Of a stretch of DNA of 64,000 bases, positions 4,522 to 35,180 are shown piece by piece. The stretch spans positions 42,639 to 106,638 of the forward strand of contig CADBUI010000027.1 of NCBI GenBank assembly GCA_902797855.1, read 5' to 3'. Position 1 is the first letter of the stretch; the number at the start of each line of letters is the position of its first letter. The notes under the pieces were generated by a model. The model had not been told where the DNA came from and did not search any database. It saw nothing but the letters and a program-made list of their open reading frames with translations. The translations under genes and the position numbers were made by a program. Source of the stretch: an uncultured Erysipelotrichaceae bacterium. GTDB taxonomy: Bacteria > Bacillota_I > Bacilli_A > RFN20 > CAG-826.

Positions 4522-4539
4522 GAAATATATATTATTTGT

Positions 4540-4760
4540 AGCGTTGATGAAGACACGCTTAATATCTCCTCTTAGTAGAGATAAGGATGGTTGGTGAAAA
4601 TCCTGATAAGAGAATATTAAGTACCACTTCGGAGCATTTAGGGAAATAACCTAAACGTCACTCGCGTTAAGAGATAATTAAGAGCATACCAGTTTGGTAT
4701 GAATTAAGGTGGTACCGCGTTAATATAGCGTCCTTATGTGGGACGCTTTTAATTTATTTA
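4540..4760 (+). promoter_or_regulatory. T-box riboswitch leader (Thr specifier) with intrinsic terminator, upstream of thrS
   Basis: Conserved T-box AATTAAGGTGGTACCGCG at 4702-4719, an AGAGA box, and a candidate specifier ACC-A (gtACCAct). Terminator hairpin AGCGTCC-ttatgtg-GGACGCT plus TTTT at 4728-4755. A possible promoter TTGATT-17-TATATT lies at ~4505-4533. Confidence 0.75.
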
Positions 4761-26365: not shown

Positions 26366-26390
26366 AGAGCAGAAACTTAATTCTGCTCAA
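26366..26390 (-). terminator. terminator after the Rhs-cassette lipoprotein gene
   Basis: Minus strand GAGCAGAA-ttaagtt-TCTGCTC followed by TTTTT. Confidence 0.5.
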
Positions 26391-26399
26391 TAAGTGTAA

Positions 26400-27227
26400 T
26401 TACACAACTATTTCGTATGTTGGATCAGGAGGACCATAGTAAAAATAGTCGAAATCAACTAATGGCTCGAAATTTGATATTTTGGTTCCATCTTCCCATT
26501 GCAAATTAACTTTAATTAAGTTGTTTTCTTTAATGTTGCGAGTCTGTTCTTTCATAGAATCAATATATTCATCAACATCAAAAGTGTTGTAATCATAGTC
26601 AGTCAAATTATCTAACATATCCCAAAAACTTATCTGTAAATAGGGTAATTCAGGACAATCACGGAAATAACTAATTGAATCATTCCCACGAATCATAAAA
26701 TCGTGAGAAAATATGATATTAATTGAGAAATCATCTATGATATTGCTTATCAAGCCATTTTTTTCGCCATATCTCAGGCAAAAATTTGTGTACTTTAAAT
26801 GAGGTTCCTTATTCTCTCTGCGATCGTCTCTACTATTAGTACTATTTTTATAATCTGTTCTTCTTTGAAACTCACGACCAGTATATGACATGTATGGAGC
26901 CGAATTGGTAAAATATGGTGCGTTAAAATAAAAATTATTTGTTGCCGAGTTATATGGTATATGAATTACCAAACTATTATCTTTGCCAAATTCAAATGTA
27001 TCAGGCAATTGATAGGAATCTAAAATGTTTGTTTCAACACTACCTTCATAAAAACCAGTAATACTTTCGTAGACTTCATATTTAACGTATTGATACCTAA
27101 TGTTTGTGTTTTGATCAAAAAAAATTATTTCCTTAATATTTTCCATACCGGAACTATGACACGAATTCAATAAAATAACTGGAAGAATTGAACTAAATAC
27201 CGCGATTTTCTTAATATTATTTTTCAT
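26400..27227 (-). CDS. exported lipoprotein; candidate cognate immunity protein of the Rhs toxin
   Basis: Signal peptide plus lipobox LLNSC. Its start overlaps the Rhs stop (ATGA). No homology recognised. Confidence 0.55.
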   Translation of the reverse strand: MKNNIKKIAVFSSILPVILLNSCHSSGMENIKEIIFFDQNTNIRYQYVKYEVYESITGFYEGSVETNILDSYQLPDTFEFGKDNSLVIHIPYNSATNNFYFNAPYFTNSAPYMSYTGREFQRRTDYKNSTNSRDDRRENKEPHLKYTNFCLRYGEKNGLISNIIDDFSINIIFSHDFMIRGNDSISYFRDCPELPYLQISFWDMLDNLTDYDYNTFDVDEYIDSMKEQTRNIKENNLIKVNLQWEDGTKISNFEPLVDFDYFYYGPPDPTYEIVV

Positions 27228-30200
27228 ATACTCTTCCTCTTAATTATAAAGCCACAAATAAATTTTCGACCAACTTCATTTACTAAATCCACATTCCATC
27301 TATTCGAAAGGCTCGAAAAATATTTAGTCGTCTCGTTCGGAAACATGTACCCATTAAGTTCATAAAACATCGAATTAGAAATATCGCTAATCGGTATTAT
27401 CATAGTAGTATGACTTGTCAAACTAGGAATATTTGTTGAATTAGGAATAAATCCATTTATATATGTCGAAATTATAGCGCAATCCATTGAAAATTCGCCA
27501 TAGTCAGATATCAAATCCTCTACACTAGTTCTTATTGGACCAACTTCTATCTCGTCATATTTTGTGAGCATCTCGTGAATGTGGGTTGGGAAAGCGCCAA
27601 GCTGACCAAATAATAGAGATTTCTTTTCGCATTCAGCGATTAAATTAGGGAATAACAAATCATCTTCTTCGGCGGTGAAATGTCTAAGAGCTGGAAGATT
27701 ACAGAATAAAAGGGCATTATATGAAGTGATTATTGTGCAACCAGCTTTGTTGATATTTTTTGAACCAAACTTTAATGATTCTGCCTCGGTTTTCGCCTGA
27801 TTATTGAAATATGCTGTAGATGTAGTGTCTCCAGAGATTGTTGTCAATAAAGTATCTTTTAATCGTGGGTTTTGTGTCCAAACCTCTACATTATGTTCAT
27901 AGTTTGATTTAGAAATTGATAAAATAACATACTCTAGTGGGCTTATATAGCAAGTCCACCAACCAACATTATCTATATTAAACAAATTAGCATTAAGCAA
28001 CTCATTTGCGATAATATCGTGAACAACCATTAATTCATATAAATGATTGCCGGCAAAATGTGTAATAAATGAACCTATAGAATTCATGGTGTTTGTAGTT
28101 ATTTTTTTAATGTAGTCTATAATGTTCGAATTATTATTAGATACAAGTGTTGATAACAAAGGGGCACCTTGTGTTAATAAGGCAATACTGACTATTGGAT
28201 TGGTAATTATTGCAACTACAACAGTAACTGCAGTGACTACAGCGGTTAAACCAATCAAAAGCACATCCAAAATAGAGAATTTTCCACTTGGATCGCTTCT
28301 CATGATAGGATTGTTATTACAATATGAGAATAGGTTAAACTGAGCAGAATCTAATTTATCTTTGATAGTGTCATAGATATTATCTGGAGATATAAATCTT
28401 CTTAACAATGGCGAGTAATACCTATTGATTAAATAATATAATCCTGATTCAGAGTCATAATAATAACCCTTGTAGTAGAAATGGTTATAACCAGCAATGC
28501 TAGTTTCTTCATTTATAGAAACGAGCTTACCAAAGTCATCATAAGAATAAGAAGCAACAATTTGGCCAGATGAATCTATAATCTTTCTAATTATTCCTAA
28601 TATGTCTCGATAATAATAGTAATAATTTGACGAATTACTCTTATCTAATCTAAATCCAATTAGTTTATCGTTTTCGTCATAAAGATAAATGATTGTAGCG
28701 TCATTAGACTTTTCAACTAACAGGCGATTATCTTCATAGAAATAATTGATAACGTTGTTACCGTGTTGTTTTTTAATTCTACGATTTTGATAATCATATA
28801 AATAAGTATATGTTTCGTTATTCACTGATACTGCTGCTAGTTTATCGGCAAGCCAGGAAAGCTCTAAATCTCCAATCGAAGATGGATAAAGCGATTCGTC
28901 ATATGCATAAGTTAATTGGACATAATCTACATTATTCTTCTTAATTCCTATCAATTTATGACCGAAATGGGAATCGTAAATATAATCATAGATATTGCCA
29001 CTCGAATCGCTCACTTTTAAAATATTACCAAGAACATCATATTCATAAAGTGTTGGGTCTTGATTATTTAATTTAGATGAAACGAGTCTATCAAGATAAT
29101 CATATTCGTAATGAATTTCATCATTATTACAAGTAACGCAAGATACATTATTGTTCAAATCATAACCATATGATCTAGTTTCAATAGAACTTGTTTCGGA
29201 AAGAACCTTTGTCGAAGTTCTACCTTGGATAGGATTATTCTCGTTATCAAGTGGGGTAATATAGTTAAGTGATTTTGTAACACTACCGATGTTAGTAGAT
29301 ACGACTCTACCCATCGAGTCAATTTCTTTATAATTTGAGAATACTCGAATCGAAGAATTGGAAATTGCTTGATGATCAAGACAATAGATAAAATCCTTCA
29401 AGTATCCGTTTAAATAATCGGTGAAAACTGTATAACTAGAATTATTTGCAGTTGCACCCATAGATACATGATCTAAAGAATCGTTGAATGATAAGGAATC
29501 TATCAACGCATCATTAATATATATTTCTAGAGTTGAAGATAAACATTTCAACCTAAGAGAATACCAAGTGTTAATAGATGCATTAAAAGTAGTAGAAGTT
29601 ACGTTACCGTTGATATTAATTCTTAAATTACCATTATATAAATGAATGTTGAGTACACTACTAAAACTGGAGTCTGATAATGAAACAATAGTTTGATTAG
29701 ACCCGAATAACTTAGGAATAAAGAAATCAATTTTTAGATCAAAATCAGTAAACGGGTTAAATTGGTACACTAATCGACTCGTTTTCCCTAATAGCGAATA
29801 TTCATTTGAAAAAGATTTGTAAACGTGTCGCTTAAGTGAATTATCCCATAGGAAATCGTTTGGTTTATCAAACTTATCGTTTGTGATAGTTTCACCACAA
29901 ACAAGAGGAGAAATGTTTTTGCTAGAAATGTAGTTATCATCCAAAGACACATAATCGTAATCGTTATTTGACAAAGAAGATGATTTGACTCCCGAATAAG
30001 TGTGAATTAAATAAGGCTTAATTAAGTAATCGTATCCTTCATTATAGATTGATTTTATTTCAGTAGGAGAATAGGCATAACATCCAAAACTTAGATGAAG
30101 GATTTTTGTATAGGAAATAATCGGTGATCCAAAAGGAGTATTGAGTGGGCGAATAAAAGTTTCTGGACCAATCAGCAAATAATCAGCGTATTCAAAATAT

Positions 30201-33200
30201 AGCGGATTATTAGAACCATCAGTCAATGTTAACAATAATTCTCCGTTTAAGTAAAACTCTCCAATCGTATCATTTCCAACTTGTTTCATTATAAGTGCAC
30301 ACATCATCCAATCGGAAATAGTCGCGCCTAACGGTTGACTTGTTTGTGTATAATTTCCTAATTTTAAAGTGATCGTTCCGCCTGTATCAAAGTAGGCATA
30401 ACATGTTTTTGCAGAACCGGGCATGTAATAGAAACAAAGAATTGGAACACCTGAAAATAGTCCATCAAATTTCACCCACGCAACAGCGGATCTTGTAGAT
30501 GCAAATTTATTGTCCCATTCGCTCTTGTTAAAAGTTTCGCCTGCGATAGTTTTGCTTCTAGTAGAATTAGCTTCTAATAAATTATATGCAATGATTTTGC
30601 CGCTAGCTCTAATGCTCGCTACTTTTTTATGAAGTGTTTCATCAAAAATATATTTTAAAGAAGTGGACTCACATAAATTGTCATATGGTTGGGCGCCGTA
30701 TCTACTTTTTAAAGATAGACCACCATCAACTTGATCATCATTAAAAACATAATCAACTTTATTGATAAATTCTCGAGGTGATAAATTATTAATCTCATAA
30801 TTTCTGACAAAGTCAGTTGATTCATTTAGATTAATAGCGGATACATTTTTATGTTGGATTTTATTTAAATTATCGTAATAGTTTGAGTAAGAGAAACCTA
30901 ATGATGAAGAGACACTATTTATTAACTTGTCTCTTGAATAAGAAATTGTGATAGTTTCTAAATTCTGTGTATTTACGATTTTATTTAATCGATTAAAAAT
31001 GTCATACGAAAATTCTGCAATAAGTTCATCCTCAGTATAAACATTTGCCAATCGATAAGATTCATCGTAAGTATATTTGGTGTGATAATAGCTATCACTT
31101 AATATTGTTTTTGTATCAAGTAATGGGCAACCATCAATAATTACTCCATCGATATAACTCTGTGAAACGATATGAGTACAATTGTATGAAGCGTTGCTTA
31201 GTCGACCATACTCGTCATAGCTAAATTCATACTTATCATCATTGGTTAGATTAATTGCAACTAAGTTATTTTGGTTATAACTAAAAGATATTGTTCCACT
31301 GCTATCGACATATCTACCTCGTTCAAGTTCAACGATTTTACCGCTTGTGTCATAAACTTTTCTAATTAATGATGCGTTAGGCAAACAAGTCATAATGCAT
31401 TGTCCAAACTCGTTATAACAATAAGATGTCACTTTTCCTAGGTCATCTATTTTGTTATGACTACCATCTATATTATTTTCAGATGTAACAATGCTTAATC
31501 CTTCAGAATTTGTGAATGTGATACTGGTTTCGTCATCATCACAATCTATTGAAACTTGATTACCAAAATTATCGCTAATTTCAATAGGTTTACCATCTTC
31601 GTTATATGAATAAGTTAGATTAGAACCAAGATTTGTTTCACTGCTGCATAAATTACTATTTAAATAGCTGTTTGTTTGAGATAACCCATTTGAATCAATC
31701 GCAACAAGTTTCCCTCCGTCATCATAAGAATACATTTGACACTTCTCATCAATAAATAATTGAGCGCAAGTAACAAGTGCTTCTTTATATCCCTGTCGCT
31801 TAATAGTTATAAAAACTTGTATAAAATCAATATCTGCAACAATTGAAGTGGTTAATAGCTGCCAAGAATCTTGTTCCTTAACAGCGTGAACAATGTAATC
31901 TTTATCATCGAATCCATGAATGGTTAGTTGCACACTAAAATCGTTATTTTGATCTAAATCAGCGTTAACCAAACACGAGAAGGTTATTGTCTGCCCTCTT
32001 TTTCCAACAATATTAACATTTTGAGTAAGCGAGGACACGATTGGTTCTGCGCTTGGAATAAATCTTAATGAAGGGGCATTTATTGAAAAGACATTATCCG
32101 ATGGGGAAGTTGGCAAAACTTCAACATGATTATTATCGCTTGCGGTCCAATTCCTAATAGGATTATTAATGTCGCCCTCTTCATTAAAGAAGCTATTTTG
32201 AACATAGTTAATTTGGTTAGATGAAGAAGATTCATCAAGTGATAAAGAATTAAATTTAATGAAAGAATTATTTGCGATTTCGCATTCCAATATAAGCGAC
32301 GATTCGTCTGGAATTATAATGTTTTCTTCGTTTAAATTGTGCCACTGATTGTCACCAATAAGATTGAACGAGACTGTAGAAGTATGCGTTGTTTTTGTGG
32401 AACGATAGAAAGGGTGTGGACTATTTAGTGGGTGAGATGGTATTTGTTCTGTTGTTACGTAGGTCATCTCAATATTAAGAGTTTGATTCTTGTCTGTTTT
32501 ATAATAGCCCTTCAAACGATAAGTTCCATAATGAGGTCCACCCAAATCCTGGGAAATAGTCTCATTTGATGTACTACTATTTGTGAAAACTATTGAGGTT
32601 TTACCATCTATTTCTTCGATATCGTTATCTAAGACAACATCAACGCTAGATAATTCCCAAATTTCATAATCATTGGAATTAATGTTGTTATTAATCAAAT
32701 TACGATAATACGCAAGAAGCCTATGGGTATTTGTTGGTAAATGAACACAATTCTCTGAATCTCGCGGATCTTCTATTAATGAGTATGAATTGGAGGAGGA
32801 AATATAAGAAGAATCAACCACATTAGATGGTGTTCCATCATTATTAAAATAATATGTTTTTTCTCCACTAGTATCATTAATGGTTGCAGACATATCATCG
32901 TAAGAAATTAGCATAGGATTTAATGGGGAAGAATTATTATTAAAAATCACTCTTGGTAATATCTTAATTAAACGATTATCTAAATATTCTAATAAGCATG
33001 ATTTGCCGGATAATTTGTCGATAATTTCAGAGATTTTAGATTCATTATTATAGAATATAGAAATATCCTTAATAAGAACTTTGTTTTCATTTGGCTCATT
33101 AGTTGGATCAAATTCAAGCCTATACATCGAAATATTTTTAATTAATCCATTAGAATAGGCGATATCAGAAATATAACCTTTAGTGGACGTTATGCTACAA

Positions 33201-34297
33201 ATTTTTGGTAACTCATTAGGAACATTATCACTATAGTTAAGAGTAATAACATCATCTTCGTTAGTGATACTTATCAGTTGTTTAACGTTATTATTATTAA
33301 CTGAAACGTCTCGATATTGGAAAGTGCTTTCCCTTCCATTTGGTGATTTAGATTTAATAAAGATGATTTGATTAGCATATAAATTAAATTCAAGCGTTGA
33401 TTTATTCTTATAGTGAAGGTGGTAATTAGTGTTATCAAAAGTAATATATGAACCATCTTCAAAACAATAATATGCAAAATCATCCACAATTCCTAAAGTG
33501 TCTAAATCTGATCTTTCGGTGAATTTTGTATATTTTAATTTTGTGCCCAAAGAATCTATTATTGTGAATGTATCATTATTAAATTCGCAATAGCGATAAG
33601 TAGATAAATTCCATCCGCCAAATTCCTTTCCACCAAACAAAGATGAAGAATAATCTAATGACAAATTAAAAGAATCATTTACAAGATTAGGAATAGTTAG
33701 GTTTACACTTAAAAGAAGATGTCCATAATTAAGTGAAACCAAACCGGAAATATTTTTTCCTAAAAAATCATCTAATTTGTAATAAGGTAGATAAGAATGA
33801 TATCCACCCTTTTCCTGGCATTCAAAATCAATATAATCGACATTTCCAAACGTTGGATGAGGAAACATCATAAGGGATTTGTTAGGTGTCACAAGTTTCA
33901 TGTATAAAGACTTATTCTTCACATCACCAGAAACACTTTTAACAAATTTGGTAATATCAAAAACAACATAACTTTCAACATCGGGGATGATTGATGAAGT
34001 AGCTTGGCCAAGTCCAGCACTAACTAAATCAATTAGATTCCAATTCGTATCATATAAAGCAAAGACTAAGCCATATGACAATGTTGCAAAGAAACAGGTA
34101 ATTAAACATTTTTGGATATGGTAAGCACTCAAATCGAGATTTTGGCCTTTAAACGTTAATTTAACTGTCGAATTAGAATTAATTGTTTTATATAAAGCGG
34201 GATAGGAAATGGTATTGAATTGATCATTATCCGAATCGCGAAATGAAGTTGATAAATGAATCTGGTAATTAGTATTAGTAAATATTTTCATAATCAA
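27224..34297 (-). CDS. Rhs/YD-repeat polymorphic toxin (2357 aa) with variable C-terminal toxin domain
   Basis: Dozens of YD repeats (YSYDDFGKLV, YTYDESYRL, ...). Rhs core RYYSPLLRRFISPDN plus the demarcation motif YCNNNPIMRSDPSGK, followed by a unique 351-aa C-terminal region. Confidence 0.9.
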   Translation of the reverse strand: MIMKIFTNTNYQIHLSTSFRDSDNDQFNTISYPALYKTINSNSTVKLTFKGQNLDLSAYHIQKCLITCFFATLSYGLVFALYDTNWNLIDLVSAGLGQATSSIIPDVESYVVFDITKFVKSVSGDVKNKSLYMKLVTPNKSLMMFPHPTFGNVDYIDFECQEKGGYHSYLPYYKLDDFLGKNISGLVSLNYGHLLLSVNLTIPNLVNDSFNLSLDYSSSLFGGKEFGGWNLSTYRYCEFNNDTFTIIDSLGTKLKYTKFTERSDLDTLGIVDDFAYYCFEDGSYITFDNTNYHLHYKNKSTLEFNLYANQIIFIKSKSPNGRESTFQYRDVSVNNNNVKQLISITNEDDVITLNYSDNVPNELPKICSITSTKGYISDIAYSNGLIKNISMYRLEFDPTNEPNENKVLIKDISIFYNNESKISEIIDKLSGKSCLLEYLDNRLIKILPRVIFNNNSSPLNPMLISYDDMSATINDTSGEKTYYFNNDGTPSNVVDSSYISSSNSYSLIEDPRDSENCVHLPTNTHRLLAYYRNLINNNINSNDYEIWELSSVDVVLDNDIEEIDGKTSIVFTNSSTSNETISQDLGGPHYGTYRLKGYYKTDKNQTLNIEMTYVTTEQIPSHPLNSPHPFYRSTKTTHTSTVSFNLIGDNQWHNLNEENIIIPDESSLILECEIANNSFIKFNSLSLDESSSSNQINYVQNSFFNEEGDINNPIRNWTASDNNHVEVLPTSPSDNVFSINAPSLRFIPSAEPIVSSLTQNVNIVGKRGQTITFSCLVNADLDQNNDFSVQLTIHGFDDKDYIVHAVKEQDSWQLLTTSIVADIDFIQVFITIKRQGYKEALVTCAQLFIDEKCQMYSYDDGGKLVAIDSNGLSQTNSYLNSNLCSSETNLGSNLTYSYNEDGKPIEISDNFGNQVSIDCDDDETSITFTNSEGLSIVTSENNIDGSHNKIDDLGKVTSYCYNEFGQCIMTCLPNASLIRKVYDTSGKIVELERGRYVDSSGTISFSYNQNNLVAINLTNDDKYEFSYDEYGRLSNASYNCTHIVSQSYIDGVIIDGCPLLDTKTILSDSYYHTKYTYDESYRLANVYTEDELIAEFSYDIFNRLNKIVNTQNLETITISYSRDKLINSVSSSLGFSYSNYYDNLNKIQHKNVSAINLNESTDFVRNYEINNLSPREFINKVDYVFNDDQVDGGLSLKSRYGAQPYDNLCESTSLKYIFDETLHKKVASIRASGKIIAYNLLEANSTRSKTIAGETFNKSEWDNKFASTRSAVAWVKFDGLFSGVPILCFYYMPGSAKTCYAYFDTGGTITLKLGNYTQTSQPLGATISDWMMCALIMKQVGNDTIGEFYLNGELLLTLTDGSNNPLYFEYADYLLIGPETFIRPLNTPFGSPIISYTKILHLSFGCYAYSPTEIKSIYNEGYDYLIKPYLIHTYSGVKSSSLSNNDYDYVSLDDNYISSKNISPLVCGETITNDKFDKPNDFLWDNSLKRHVYKSFSNEYSLLGKTSRLVYQFNPFTDFDLKIDFFIPKLFGSNQTIVSLSDSSFSSVLNIHLYNGNLRININGNVTSTTFNASINTWYSLRLKCLSSTLEIYINDALIDSLSFNDSLDHVSMGATANNSSYTVFTDYLNGYLKDFIYCLDHQAISNSSIRVFSNYKEIDSMGRVVSTNIGSVTKSLNYITPLDNENNPIQGRTSTKVLSETSSIETRSYGYDLNNNVSCVTCNNDEIHYEYDYLDRLVSSKLNNQDPTLYEYDVLGNILKVSDSSGNIYDYIYDSHFGHKLIGIKKNNVDYVQLTYAYDESLYPSSIGDLELSWLADKLAAVSVNNETYTYLYDYQNRRIKKQHGNNVINYFYEDNRLLVEKSNDATIIYLYDENDKLIGFRLDKSNSSNYYYYYRDILGIIRKIIDSSGQIVASYSYDDFGKLVSINEETSIAGYNHFYYKGYYYDSESGLYYLINRYYSPLLRRFISPDNIYDTIKDKLDSAQFNLFSYCNNNPIMRSDPSGKFSILDVLLIGLTAVVTAVTVVVAIITNPIVSIALLTQGAPLLSTLVSNNNSNIIDYIKKITTNTMNSIGSFITHFAGNHLYELMVVHDIIANELLNANLFNIDNVGWWTCYISPLEYVILSISKSNYEHNVEVWTQNPRLKDTLLTTISGDTTSTAYFNNQAKTEAESLKFGSKNINKAGCTIITSYNALLFCNLPALRHFTAEEDDLLFPNLIAECEKKSLLFGQLGAFPTHIHEMLTKYDEIEVGPIRTSVEDLISDYGEFSMDCAIISTYINGFIPNSTNIPSLTSHTTMIIPISDISNSMFYELNGYMFPNETTKYFSSLSNRWNVDLVNEVGRKFICGFIIKRKSI

Positions 34298-35169
34298 AAC
34301 ACCTTCAAGTTGTTATTAAATAATTCAACAGCAAAACTATTTTCGTTAAACATTAGATCGTTCACCACTACATCAAACGGCCGATTGAGTCGATTAGATA
34401 GATAGGTTTTTATTTCGTGTGATATGTTATTAATAAATTTTCCATTCCTAGAGAGTTCACAATATATATCAACATCACTGAATGATGTTTGCTCATTTTT
34501 AGCGTATGAACCTAGAAGATACAAATGTAAGATATAATAATTCTTCTTTAGAAAAGCTTCGCAAGAGATAATCTCATTTACTAAAGATTCCGTAGAAATC
34601 AAAGGATACTGTTTATTCAAACTATTAGTGCGTTCATACACCTCAATAAGCGTTTCTTTAATCAATGATTTGTCAAAAATCATTTTCTTAATATCGCCTT
34701 TCCTAAAAGCAAAAGGAAAGCTCTTATGAACAAACAATGGAATATTTACTATTGTTAATGATATCTCTTGGCATAGTTCGTATTGTTCAAACACACTGAG
34801 GCAACGAACCAGCAAACCTTCAAAGGATGAAAACGTTAACAGTTCATTTGCTTTTATCAATAAGTGAGATAGCTCTTGCTTCTGACTACTATCTAGGTTT
34901 AGCTCACTAACTGAATTAAAATAACTAACAACATAGTCGAATGATGCTTGAGCGTCATCAATAACCATTTGTTGATGCACCATTTTATTAAAAATAGAAA
35001 ACATCTCTTCTGTTTTGTTTTCAGGAGTTATTGAAATATCACCTTTATAAAGCTTCTTTAGCCGAGAATATGATTGTTTATAATCAAAATCGTGGTAAAG
35101 ATATTCCACAAATTTAAAAGGAATCTTAGGATTATACTCCGATGATAACATTATTTTTTCAGTCATCAC
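34294..35169 (-). CDS. protein with C-terminal minimal nucleotidyltransferase (Pol-beta superfamily) domain; first gene of the Rhs cassette
   Basis: LYLLGSYAKNEQTSFSDVDIYCEL...RPFDVVV matches the hG[GS]-x9-13-Dh[DE]h MNT signature. The ~200-aa helical N-terminal region is unassigned. Its stop overlaps the Rhs start (ATGA). Confidence 0.55.
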   Translation of the reverse strand: MMTEKIMLSSEYNPKIPFKFVEYLYHDFDYKQSYSRLKKLYKGDISITPENKTEEMFSIFNKMVHQQMVIDDAQASFDYVVSYFNSVSELNLDSSQKQELSHLLIKANELLTFSSFEGLLVRCLSVFEQYELCQEISLTIVNIPLFVHKSFPFAFRKGDIKKMIFDKSLIKETLIEVYERTNSLNKQYPLISTESLVNEIISCEAFLKKNYYILHLYLLGSYAKNEQTSFSDVDIYCELSRNGKFINNISHEIKTYLSNRLNRPFDVVVNDLMFNENSFAVELFNNNLKVF

Positions 35170-35171
35170 TA

Positions 35172-35180
35172 ATTATACCA
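35172..35180 (-). promoter_or_regulatory. extended -10 promoter (TGGTATAAT) for the Rhs cassette, likely giving a leaderless transcript
   Basis: Minus strand TGgTATAAT-tagtg-ATG. No SD is present and the start codon lies ~7 nt after the -10. Confidence 0.4.

Follow-up and report, generated by a model that had tools for sequence, protein, structure and literature searches.

The helper gene and its operon

We analysed a window of 64,000 nucleotides of DNA from an uncultured Erysipelotrichaceae bacterium (contig CADBUI010000027.1; ~34% GC, genetic code table 11), and in it a minus-strand gene for a 290-residue protein, here called the helper, that stands immediately ahead of the gene for a giant Rhs/YD-repeat toxin. 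The helper joins a minimal nucleotidyltransferase (MNT) domain to a predicted Fic fold that lacks the Fic motif (pseudo-Fic). The gene belongs, as an accessory, to a polymorphic Rhs toxin system, and both the accessory family and its pseudo-Fic/MNT architecture are undescribed: full-text literature searches found no description of the family, of the domain architecture or of the helper-Rhs gene pair. The helper and its two domains are placed as follows.

34294..35166, minus strand: pseudo-Fic/MNT gene (the helper), 290 aa, TGA stop at 34296-34294
34597..35166, minus strand: N-terminal domain, aa 1-190, predicted Fic fold, all-helical, catalytic motif degenerate
34297..34569, minus strand: minimal nucleotidyltransferase domain (MNT, Pol-beta type), aa 200-290, from Pfam and fold matches

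The mechanical open reading frame (ORF) covers 34294..35169 on the minus strand and counts 291 codons from a GTG, which is followed directly by an ATG (35166). We take this ATG as the start, since the N-terminus of the resulting 290-residue protein then agrees with the N-termini of the homologues. An alternative genetic code of the Mollicutes type, in which TGA is read as Trp, was considered and rejected: family members terminate in ...K[VI]F just where the TGA falls, and the 2355 codons of the Rhs ORF run without an in-frame TGA. The remaining elements of the operon are listed here.

35172..35180, minus strand: candidate extended -10 promoter element TGGTATAAT, a sequence reading, 5 nt before the helper ATG
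34300..34306, minus strand: Shine-Dalgarno sequence GAAGGTG for the Rhs gene, within the helper 3' end, 8 nt ahead of the ATG at 34291
27224..34291, minus strand: Rhs/YD-repeat protein, 2355 aa, with RHS_repeat, RHS and Rhs_assc_core matches
28283..28543, minus strand: Rhs-associated core, Rhs aa 1917-2003 (TIGR03696, 68.5 bits, cut-off 32.5)
27227..28282, minus strand: variable C-terminal toxin region, Rhs aa 2004-2355
26400..27227, minus strand: lipoprotein, 275 aa, lipobox ...LLNSC, presumed immunity protein
26367..26388, minus strand: terminator-like hairpin and T-run that ends the three-gene operon before glgC

A consensus scan of the 84-bp intergenic region upstream of the helper found no canonical -35/-10 pair on the minus strand, and no Shine-Dalgarno sequence separates the candidate element TGGTATAAT from the helper ATG, so that the helper mRNA may be leaderless or near-leaderless. 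At the other end of the gene, an earlier note on this DNA had described the helper as coupled to the Rhs gene and overlapping its start. The likely Rhs start is the ATG at 34291, 2 nt past the helper TGA, and a 4-nt overlap arises only with the TTG start (34297) given by the ORF finder. The two genes are thus closely adjacent and, as far as the sequence can tell, probably translationally coupled; the tight adjacency and the probable coupling can be kept from the earlier description, the overlap cannot.

The earlier identification of the giant downstream gene as an rhs gene is confirmed by its RHS_repeat match (E 5.4e-15) and by the Rhs-associated core (68.5 bits), which terminates in ...MRSDPSGK, the point at which the shell gives way to the toxin tip. 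Neither a signal peptide nor a known export domain, such as PAAR or LXG, is present in the Rhs protein, and its N-terminal 850 residues gave no Pfam match at all. The toxin tip, which likewise has no match in Pfam, begins with long hydrophobic helices (ILDVLLIGLTAVVTAVTVVVAIITNPIVSIALL...) and continues into a Cys-containing domain. Directly behind it, the start of the lipoprotein gene overlaps the Rhs stop codon (ATGA). This 275-residue lipoprotein has no match in Pfam, NCBIfam or PADLOC, and, as the presumed immunity protein, it points to a toxin that targets the envelope or works outside the membrane. The repeats, the core ending in DPxG, the tips and immunity genes that are swapped between related loci (see below) and the stop-coupled lipoprotein gene all fit a polymorphic-toxin operon.

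Beyond the terminator lie glgC and glgD, and upstream of the helper the 84-bp spacer is followed by a divergent gene for a 159-aa membrane protein, rpmB and gpsA. Helper, Rhs protein and lipoprotein therefore form a three-gene operon inserted among housekeeping genes. The divergent membrane protein was also compared with a 159-aa ORF at one of the related loci (L096), without usable homology. The sole Rfam family detected in the window, a T-box leader at 4535-4738 on the plus strand (108 bits), is unrelated to the helper.

Domain architecture of the helper protein

The Pol-beta/MNT signature that the earlier note had read at the C-terminus is borne out: LYLLGSYAKNEQTSFSDVDIYCEL lies at aa 214-237 and RPFDVVV at aa 262-268, and residues 203-270 match, above the respective cut-offs, both Polbeta (PF18765; 33.6 bits, E 4.5e-8, cut-off 26.9) and NTP_transf_2 (PF01909; 32.1 bits, E 1.6e-7, cut-off 21) in Pfam. 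The protein carries the Pol-beta pattern hG[GS]x9-13Dh[DE]h together with a third carboxylate on a later strand, with the catalytic residues G219, S220, D231, D233 and D265 all present. Conservation was counted in a 38-sequence alignment of the family, every member of which has above-threshold matches to nucleotidyltransferase families in Pfam. G219, S220, S230, D231 and D233 are unchanged in all 38 aligned sequences, and the closest six all have the third Asp, D265; the G-S, the S-D-x-D and the third Asp are also intact in the tandem second copies and in the hydrolase-linked paralogues described below.

An AlphaFold model of the full-length protein, built with the family alignment, reached a pLDDT of 94.7 and a pTM of 0.88. 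In a Foldseek search of the PDB with this model, the matches to its C-terminal domain included the MntA antitoxins 7bxo, 7ae9, 8xeh and 6m6u, as well as HI0073 and 1wot (probability 1.00, TMt 0.52-0.74, root-mean-square deviation 2.6-5.1 A). Eight of the 38 members additionally match the SidM/DrrA AMPylase domain in Pfam (E 5e-8), and DrrA is also among the matches of a family profile search against the PDB. The helper reaches 25.7 of the 60 bits required for the MntA equivalog NF047752 of NCBIfam (28.5 bits for the homologue from locus L097), the PADLOC matches (PDC-S09) span the MNT domain only, and there is weak similarity to cyclases of the cyclic-oligonucleotide-based antiphage signalling system (CBASS) and to HalB nucleotidyltransferases. 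Judged by its residues, the MNT domain is apparently a catalytically competent nucleotidyltransferase, and since these residues are so strongly conserved we favour catalysis over a scaffolding role.

The N-terminal region is of a different kind. Earlier read as a helical region of ~200 residues, it is indeed helical over its ~190 residues in the AlphaFold model, and a separate model of aa 1-192 reached a pLDDT of 90.1. Across the 38 sequences it is marked by a near-invariant N-terminal motif, YNPKI, and by a central conserved block, '..F..(Y)N.EMA.L..N..L......P.IFY'; the corresponding hallmarks in the window protein are Y11-N12-P13-K14, F126, N141 and P151. Pfam recognises the nucleotidyltransferase families in the 38 members and leaves this domain unrecognised, a profile of the domain alone retrieves solely proteins with the helper's own two-domain architecture, and no member was found with a fusion to other domains or with a different architecture.

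Two independent signals, one from fold and one from sequence, each weak by itself, agree on the identity of this domain. In a Foldseek search of the PDB with the full-length model, the N-terminal ~210 columns match Fic proteins, and with the aa 1-192 model the credible matches are almost all Fic proteins: FICD (4u0u, 4u04, 6i7h), Bordetella Fic (8uqu), C. difficile Fic (4x2d) and C. elegans Fic-1. These matches have TMq values of 0.54-0.61, and thus above 0.5, probabilities up to 0.97 and E-values of 0.3-2. A hidden Markov model of the domain, run against all PDB sequences, likewise places FICD at the top (E 0.027). The FICD alignment crosses the Fic active site, where the family consensus reads 'ekiFkkyNlEmaklifNailikngkiPiif'.

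It is at this site that the chemistry has been lost. The column of the catalytic His holds a His in only 1/38 sequences, the first Arg of the motif is replaced by Glu in 26/38 and the second by K or I, and the G-N-G anion hole has given way to Y, N or variable residues; in the window protein the position of HxFx(D/E)GNGRxxR is occupied by SVFEQYELCQEIS. What remains is structural, with N141 kept in 35/38 and P151 in 38/38, and the Phe of the motif is retained in 32/38. Pfam Fic (PF02661) gave no match in the 38 members at E <= 0.01. From the models and profiles, the N-terminal region is best described as a Fic fold incapable of Fic chemistry, an assignment that is new. Like the Fic/Fido AMPylases (FICD/HYPE, C. 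elegans Fic-1 and the bacterial Fic proteins), the helper has the helical fold and keeps the helix after the active-site loop, where its '..LifNailikngkiPiif' aligns with FICD; unlike them, it has neither HxFx(D/E)GNGRxxR nor a Pfam Fic match, and is thus not a canonical AMPylase or a Doc-type kinase.

The earlier note had raised the possibility of a degenerate HEPN-MNT fusion, an idea that has to be given up in favour of the catalytically dead Fic fold. No match of the helper to HEPN or DUF86 was obtained in Pfam, NCBIfam, or PDB sequence or fold searches, and the N-terminal domain has no invariant Arg or His across the family. A HEPN identity for this region was accordingly rejected, as profile and fold searches return Fic proteins and never HEPN; a standard HEPN at the N-terminus, which the earlier note had singled out as the result that would make the gene an unrelated module, did not emerge from the profile, PDB or fold searches. 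Nor was a HEPN gene found in the neighbourhood within the window or at any related locus. The overall arrangement recalls HI0073/HI0074 and kanamycin nucleotidyltransferase, where a minimal palm domain is completed by a helical domain (PDB matches 1no5, 1kny and 6p01), and DrrA/SidM, whose AMPylase domain is matched by the family profile; in contrast to all of these, the helical domain of the helper precedes the MNT domain and is Fic-derived rather than HEPN-like.

The family and its association with Rhs genes

The family is rare. An exhaustive phmmer scan of 1.84 billion representatives gave 68 matches, of which ~45 are full-length relatives; these measure 270-300 aa, share 20-30% identity and align from residue ~10 to the C-terminus. 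A word-indexed search of 5.8 billion clusters returned the helper's own cluster and two chimeras and nothing else, and a scan of Joint Genome Institute (JGI) metagenomes with the pattern YNPKIx[FY][KL][FM] yielded nothing usable. The same holds for exact look-ups of the protein and of its GTG-start version in a contig index, and for a search for related loci based on the 38-sequence alignment. The relatives come from metagenome-assembled genomes (MAGs) of 'uncultured Mollicutes' and Erysipelotrichales and from human-gut metagenomes, and one of them is labelled 'nucleotidyltransferase domain-containing protein [Erysipelotrichales bacterium]' in the database. Among the 185,579 species representatives of GTDB, the sole family member is in an 'uncultured Mollicutes' MAG (L003).

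In each of the 10 distinct loci, the window among them, the helper lies directly ahead of an Rhs/YD gene on the same strand, with a gap of 2-21 nt, and the helpers themselves share 20-58% identity. The Rhs genes at these loci encode 1771-2411 aa, except in L096, where the gene runs to the contig end and encodes at least 1162 aa. In L003 an Rhs gene for 2411 aa lies 12 nt behind the helper, and its product is 26% identical to the Rhs protein of the window over 2103 aa, N-terminus included; in eight further members that were looked up the helper is followed after 11-21 nt by an Rhs/YD protein of 1771-2263 aa and then by a small unrelated gene. Two loci carry the helper as a tandem duplication (289+286 aa and 276+305 aa), in which the second copies have the same pseudo-Fic domain in a more divergent form (hhalign E 5e-6 and 2e-4). 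The earlier note had named conservation of the gene pair upstream of rhs in other genomes as the check on which its proposal should stand or fall, and the pair was recovered in 10/10 distinct loci; a dedicated partner of the Rhs operon, and not a stray HEPN-MNT module, is what this supports.

The same result weighs on the view that the helper belongs to an unrelated toxin-antitoxin (TA) or anti-phage module, either of the type VII HEPN/MNT-like kind or Fic/Doc-derived, which merely abuts rhs in a variable island. One could point to MntA antitoxins and the PADLOC candidate PDC-S09 as the nearest relatives of the MNT domain, to the TIR and STAND genes beside the cassette in L097, and to the fact that the locus differs between strains. 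However, there is neither a HEPN partner nor a HEPN fold, a Fic domain stripped of every catalytic residue leaves no toxin to neutralise, the MntA equivalog score falls far short (25.7 bits for a cut-off of 60), no member occurs in IMG/VR, and adjacency to Rhs in 10/10 loci at 20-30% identity is not the mark of hitch-hiking. We therefore consider an unrelated module barely credible.

MntA itself is the antitoxin of the type VII HepT/MntA (HEPN/MNT) TA system and AMPylates its partner protein (PMC7641770), and fused MNT-HEPN variants are known (PMC13000451). The helper shares with it the minimal Pol-beta fold and the GS...DxD...D signature, and MntA proteins are its top structural and sequence matches. 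It differs in having no HEPN partner or domain, in carrying the MNT domain C-terminal to a dead Fic fold, in scoring below the equivalog cut-off, and in having as its obligatory neighbour a giant Rhs protein with an exchangeable tip. Since the toxic tip is exchangeable, a specific toxin-antitoxin pairing is not possible.

The exchange of tips can be followed directly. Between L083 and L084, and again between L088 and L089, the helper, the Rhs N-terminus and the Rhs shell are 100% identical, whereas the Rhs C-terminal tips and the immunity genes are unrelated. Because an identical helper and shell can thus carry unrelated tips and immunity genes, we conclude that it is the conserved part of the toxin, responsible for delivery, that the helper serves. 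The possibility that it is a tip-specific immunity protein or neutraliser was rejected on the same ground. From locus to locus the identity of the helper keeps step with that of the shell (helper/shell 47/48, 58/72, 42/35 and 24/28%).

Helper and shell have also been lost together. Two strains related to that of the window (L001 and L002) carry independent deletions of ~7.1 kb, in which the Rhs shell and nearly the whole helper are gone and helper codon ~31 (L001) or ~40 (L002) is joined to the toxin-tip region. The endpoints correspond to window positions 35047-35088 and 27859-27986, at short imperfect microhomologies (L001 1-918, L002 1582-2190); the fusion is in frame in L001 and at first out of frame in L002. 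Both strains keep the candidate promoter region, an orphan toxin tip and a lipoprotein gene, followed by glgC. Rhs residues ~2107-2355 survive in these deletion variants as a separate ORF, 73% identical, and the window lipoprotein is 55% identical to the product of the gene after the orphan toxin in L001.

Upstream of the helper, most of the relatives have a further set of genes. A Phage_holin_5_2 gene either overlaps the helper start with its end or lies within 3 nt of it in 6/9 of the other distinct loci; it is directly upstream of the helper in L003, L083-85, L088-93 and L097/98, and ~450 nt upstream in L087. The holin gene is preceded by one for a membrane/coiled-coil protein of 79-99 aa, which is phrog_1863 where tested. 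A gene for a small sigma-70 region-4 factor (136-142 aa) precedes this cassette in L097/98 and a comparable one in L003; in L084 and L088 it follows the Rhs gene. The full cassette in the relatives (L097 8862-17770, L098, L083-85, L088-90 and L092) comprises sigma factor, transmembrane/coiled-coil protein (95-99 aa), holin, one or two helpers, Rhs protein and immunity gene. The earlier description of the helper as the first gene of an Rhs operon is consequently accurate for the window and does not extend to most relatives, which start with the sigma factor, the small membrane protein and the holin. A phage origin of the helper was considered and rejected: it has no PHROG match, no full-length BFVD match and no member in IMG/VR, and what is phage-like in the cassette is the holin and the 99-aa protein only. 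No endolysin domain or spanin was noticed in the loci, and no markers of the type VI or type VII secretion systems (T6SS, T7SS) are present in them.

This layout is reminiscent of two known release systems. The pathogenicity locus (PaLoc) of C. difficile encodes the sigma factor TcdR, the holin TcdE and the endolysin remnant TcdL (PMC6200909, PMC10516005), a degenerate enzyme thought to link toxin and holin (PMC6200909), and the type X secretion system (T10SS) releases Tc toxins with an Rhs cocoon (PMC10847048, PMC10847046). The likeness lies in what the relatives of this locus encode, namely a holin and a small sigma factor next to the helper, a giant toxin devoid of a signal peptide and an immunity gene; the difference is that the gene in between encodes a nucleotidyltransferase and not a lysin remnant, that no endolysin or spanin is seen, and that the window is without a holin. 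This likeness is one of gene layout, and holin-dependent release of the helper-linked Rhs proteins is putative.

One could accordingly speculate that the helper regulates release or protects the producer, by modifying the holin, the membrane protein, the sigma factor or an envelope precursor, or by making a nucleotide signal, and in this way times lysis or export or shields the producing cell. The holin that abuts the helper in 6/9 other distinct loci together with the membrane protein, the sigma factor nearby in some of them, the resemblance to PaLoc and to Tc-toxin release by the T10SS (PMC10847048, PMC6200909), the paralogues beside lipase-like genes in L086/87 and the weak similarity to CBASS cyclase and HalB nucleotidyltransferases would all be compatible with such a role. 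Yet the window has a helper and an Rhs gene without any holin, small membrane-protein or sigma homologue in its 64 kb, and L096 likewise has no Pfam-recognisable holin upstream of the helper, which is preceded there by a 123-aa ORF with a weak membrane-protein match. The Rhs gene is therefore the sole invariant neighbour, and it is with the Rhs shell that the helper co-diverges. A primary role in release or self-protection thus appears decidedly improbable to us.

An association beyond Rhs is seen in L087 (2668-4632 and 6661-8673; the same in L086). A few kb ahead of the Rhs cassette, this locus has two additional helper paralogues, of 282 and 268 aa, which retain the catalytic residues, and each of them comes immediately after an alpha/beta-hydrolase gene. 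The hydrolases are of the DUF915/PGAP1 type and show weak similarity to the Tle3 phospholipase effector, and the helper family may therefore also partner lipase-type toxins.

In L097 (1-5293, Erysipelotrichales) TIR_2 and nSTAND3/AAA_16 genes adjoin the Rhs cassette, which marks a defence/conflict island. Behind several of the Rhs genes, orphan YD-shell fragments with small downstream genes of their own occur, in L083 (18254-20737), L089 (19064-20495) and L094 (8501-10403) and resemble the spare toxin-tip arrays of other Rhs loci; in L083 there is in addition a serine recombinase gene, followed by a gene for a TNT-domain toxin.

A proposed role in toxin maturation

Accessory genes are a familiar part of polymorphic-toxin systems, with EagR/DUF1795, DUF4123 and DUF2169 proteins serving the Rhs toxins of the T6SS and Lap1/Lap2 the LXG toxins of the T7SS. 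The helper resembles them as a small cytoplasmic protein encoded right upstream of the toxin, conserved together with the delivery part and indifferent to the tip. It differs from them in having an unrelated fold, an enzyme domain that looks active from its residues, and a phage-type holin as its companion in place of those secretion systems. Profiles of DUF1795/EagR, DUF4123, DUF2169 and Lap1/Lap2 gave no match, and all Pfam matches of the helper are to nucleotidyltransferase families. The cytoplasmic location is assumed because inspection of sequence and model, without a dedicated predictor, brought up neither a secretion signal nor a transmembrane segment.

These comparisons lead us to propose, tentatively and with a confidence that stops a little short of even, that the helper is a dedicated accessory enzyme for one class of giant Rhs toxins, found in gut Bacillota of low GC content (Erysipelotrichales and MAGs of the 'Mollicutes' type). 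We infer its enzymatic activity, its substrate and its role in stabilisation or release along the following lines. By analogy, the helper probably AMPylates a protein, a reaction proposed here because its closest structural relatives, MntA (PMC7641770) and DrrA, do so. The dead Fic domain would provide docking or bind the substrate, just as HEPN and other helical domains complement other minimal nucleotidyltransferases. The target would lie in the conserved delivery part, that is, in the Rhs shell or N-terminal region, or else in the release apparatus. In the cytoplasm of the producer, the enzyme would modify or hold the newly made Rhs protein so that it stays stable, inert and competent for release, and holin-driven export or lysis would follow, by means of a holin that is encoded in most relatives and not in the window.

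A more specific form of this proposal, which we regard as rather doubtful, is that nucleotidylylation (AMPylation) by the helper constitutes an obligatory maturation or safety step for the giant, holin-released class of Rhs toxins in gut Bacillota, in which the conserved shell, the N-terminus or the release machinery would be tagged covalently, so that the loaded cocoon stays inert and fit for export.

Much of the evidence could also be accommodated by a purely structural protein, an adaptor or chaperone that binds the Rhs N-terminus or shell, stabilises it or passes it on to the holin or release machinery, and whose active site is at most a nucleotide-binding site. Toxin chaperones are typically encoded in just such a coupled position, right before the toxin gene, the one or two copies per locus suggest homo- or hetero-oligomers, the helper is independent of the toxin tip, and the Fic domain already provides an example, within the same protein, of a dead enzyme reused as a scaffold. 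Such a protein would have its parallels in EagR, DUF4123 and Lap1/Lap2 of other polymorphic toxins, and there is a precedent as well in TcdL of the C. difficile PaLoc, which is a reported toxin binder (PMC6200909). What argues against a merely structural function is that the nucleotidyltransferase residues are invariant in ~40 sequences at 20-30% identity, duplicates included, while the Fic motif has decayed in the very same proteins, which indicates that the nucleotidyltransferase chemistry is under selection. We thus think a purely structural role unlikely, if still a serious competitor to an accessory enzyme.

The accessory-enzyme proposal has its own difficulties. The E-values of the Fic fold searches are weak (0.3-2), as is the sequence match to FICD (E 0.027), and the census of genomic contexts comprises 10 distinct loci, the window and nine others. 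Catalytic residues can be conserved for nucleotide binding without transfer. The partner of the helper may be broader than the Rhs shell, given the hydrolase-linked paralogues in L086/87. Finally, with no homologue of the holin, the small membrane protein or the sigma factor anywhere in the 64-kb window, the release step is unexplained there.

If the helper does act on the Rhs protein, it would add an extra layer of post-translational control to the biology of polymorphic toxins. More generally, the helper family offers a handle on the question of how Gram-positive or wall-less gut bacteria make, tame and release giant Rhs toxins without T6SS, T7SS or Sec signals, since it consists of small proteins with a candidate active site that are strictly linked to the conserved part of toxin delivery. 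The architecture is new in itself, with a Fic fold minus its AMPylation motif joined to an intact domain of the AMPylase type, and bears on the evolution of enzymes in conflict systems. Should nucleotidylylation prove to be the function, this would be the first case in which chemistry of the type VII TA style has been recruited to the control of polymorphic toxin delivery, and the first in which a Fic domain has been reused as the subunit that targets another AMPylase.

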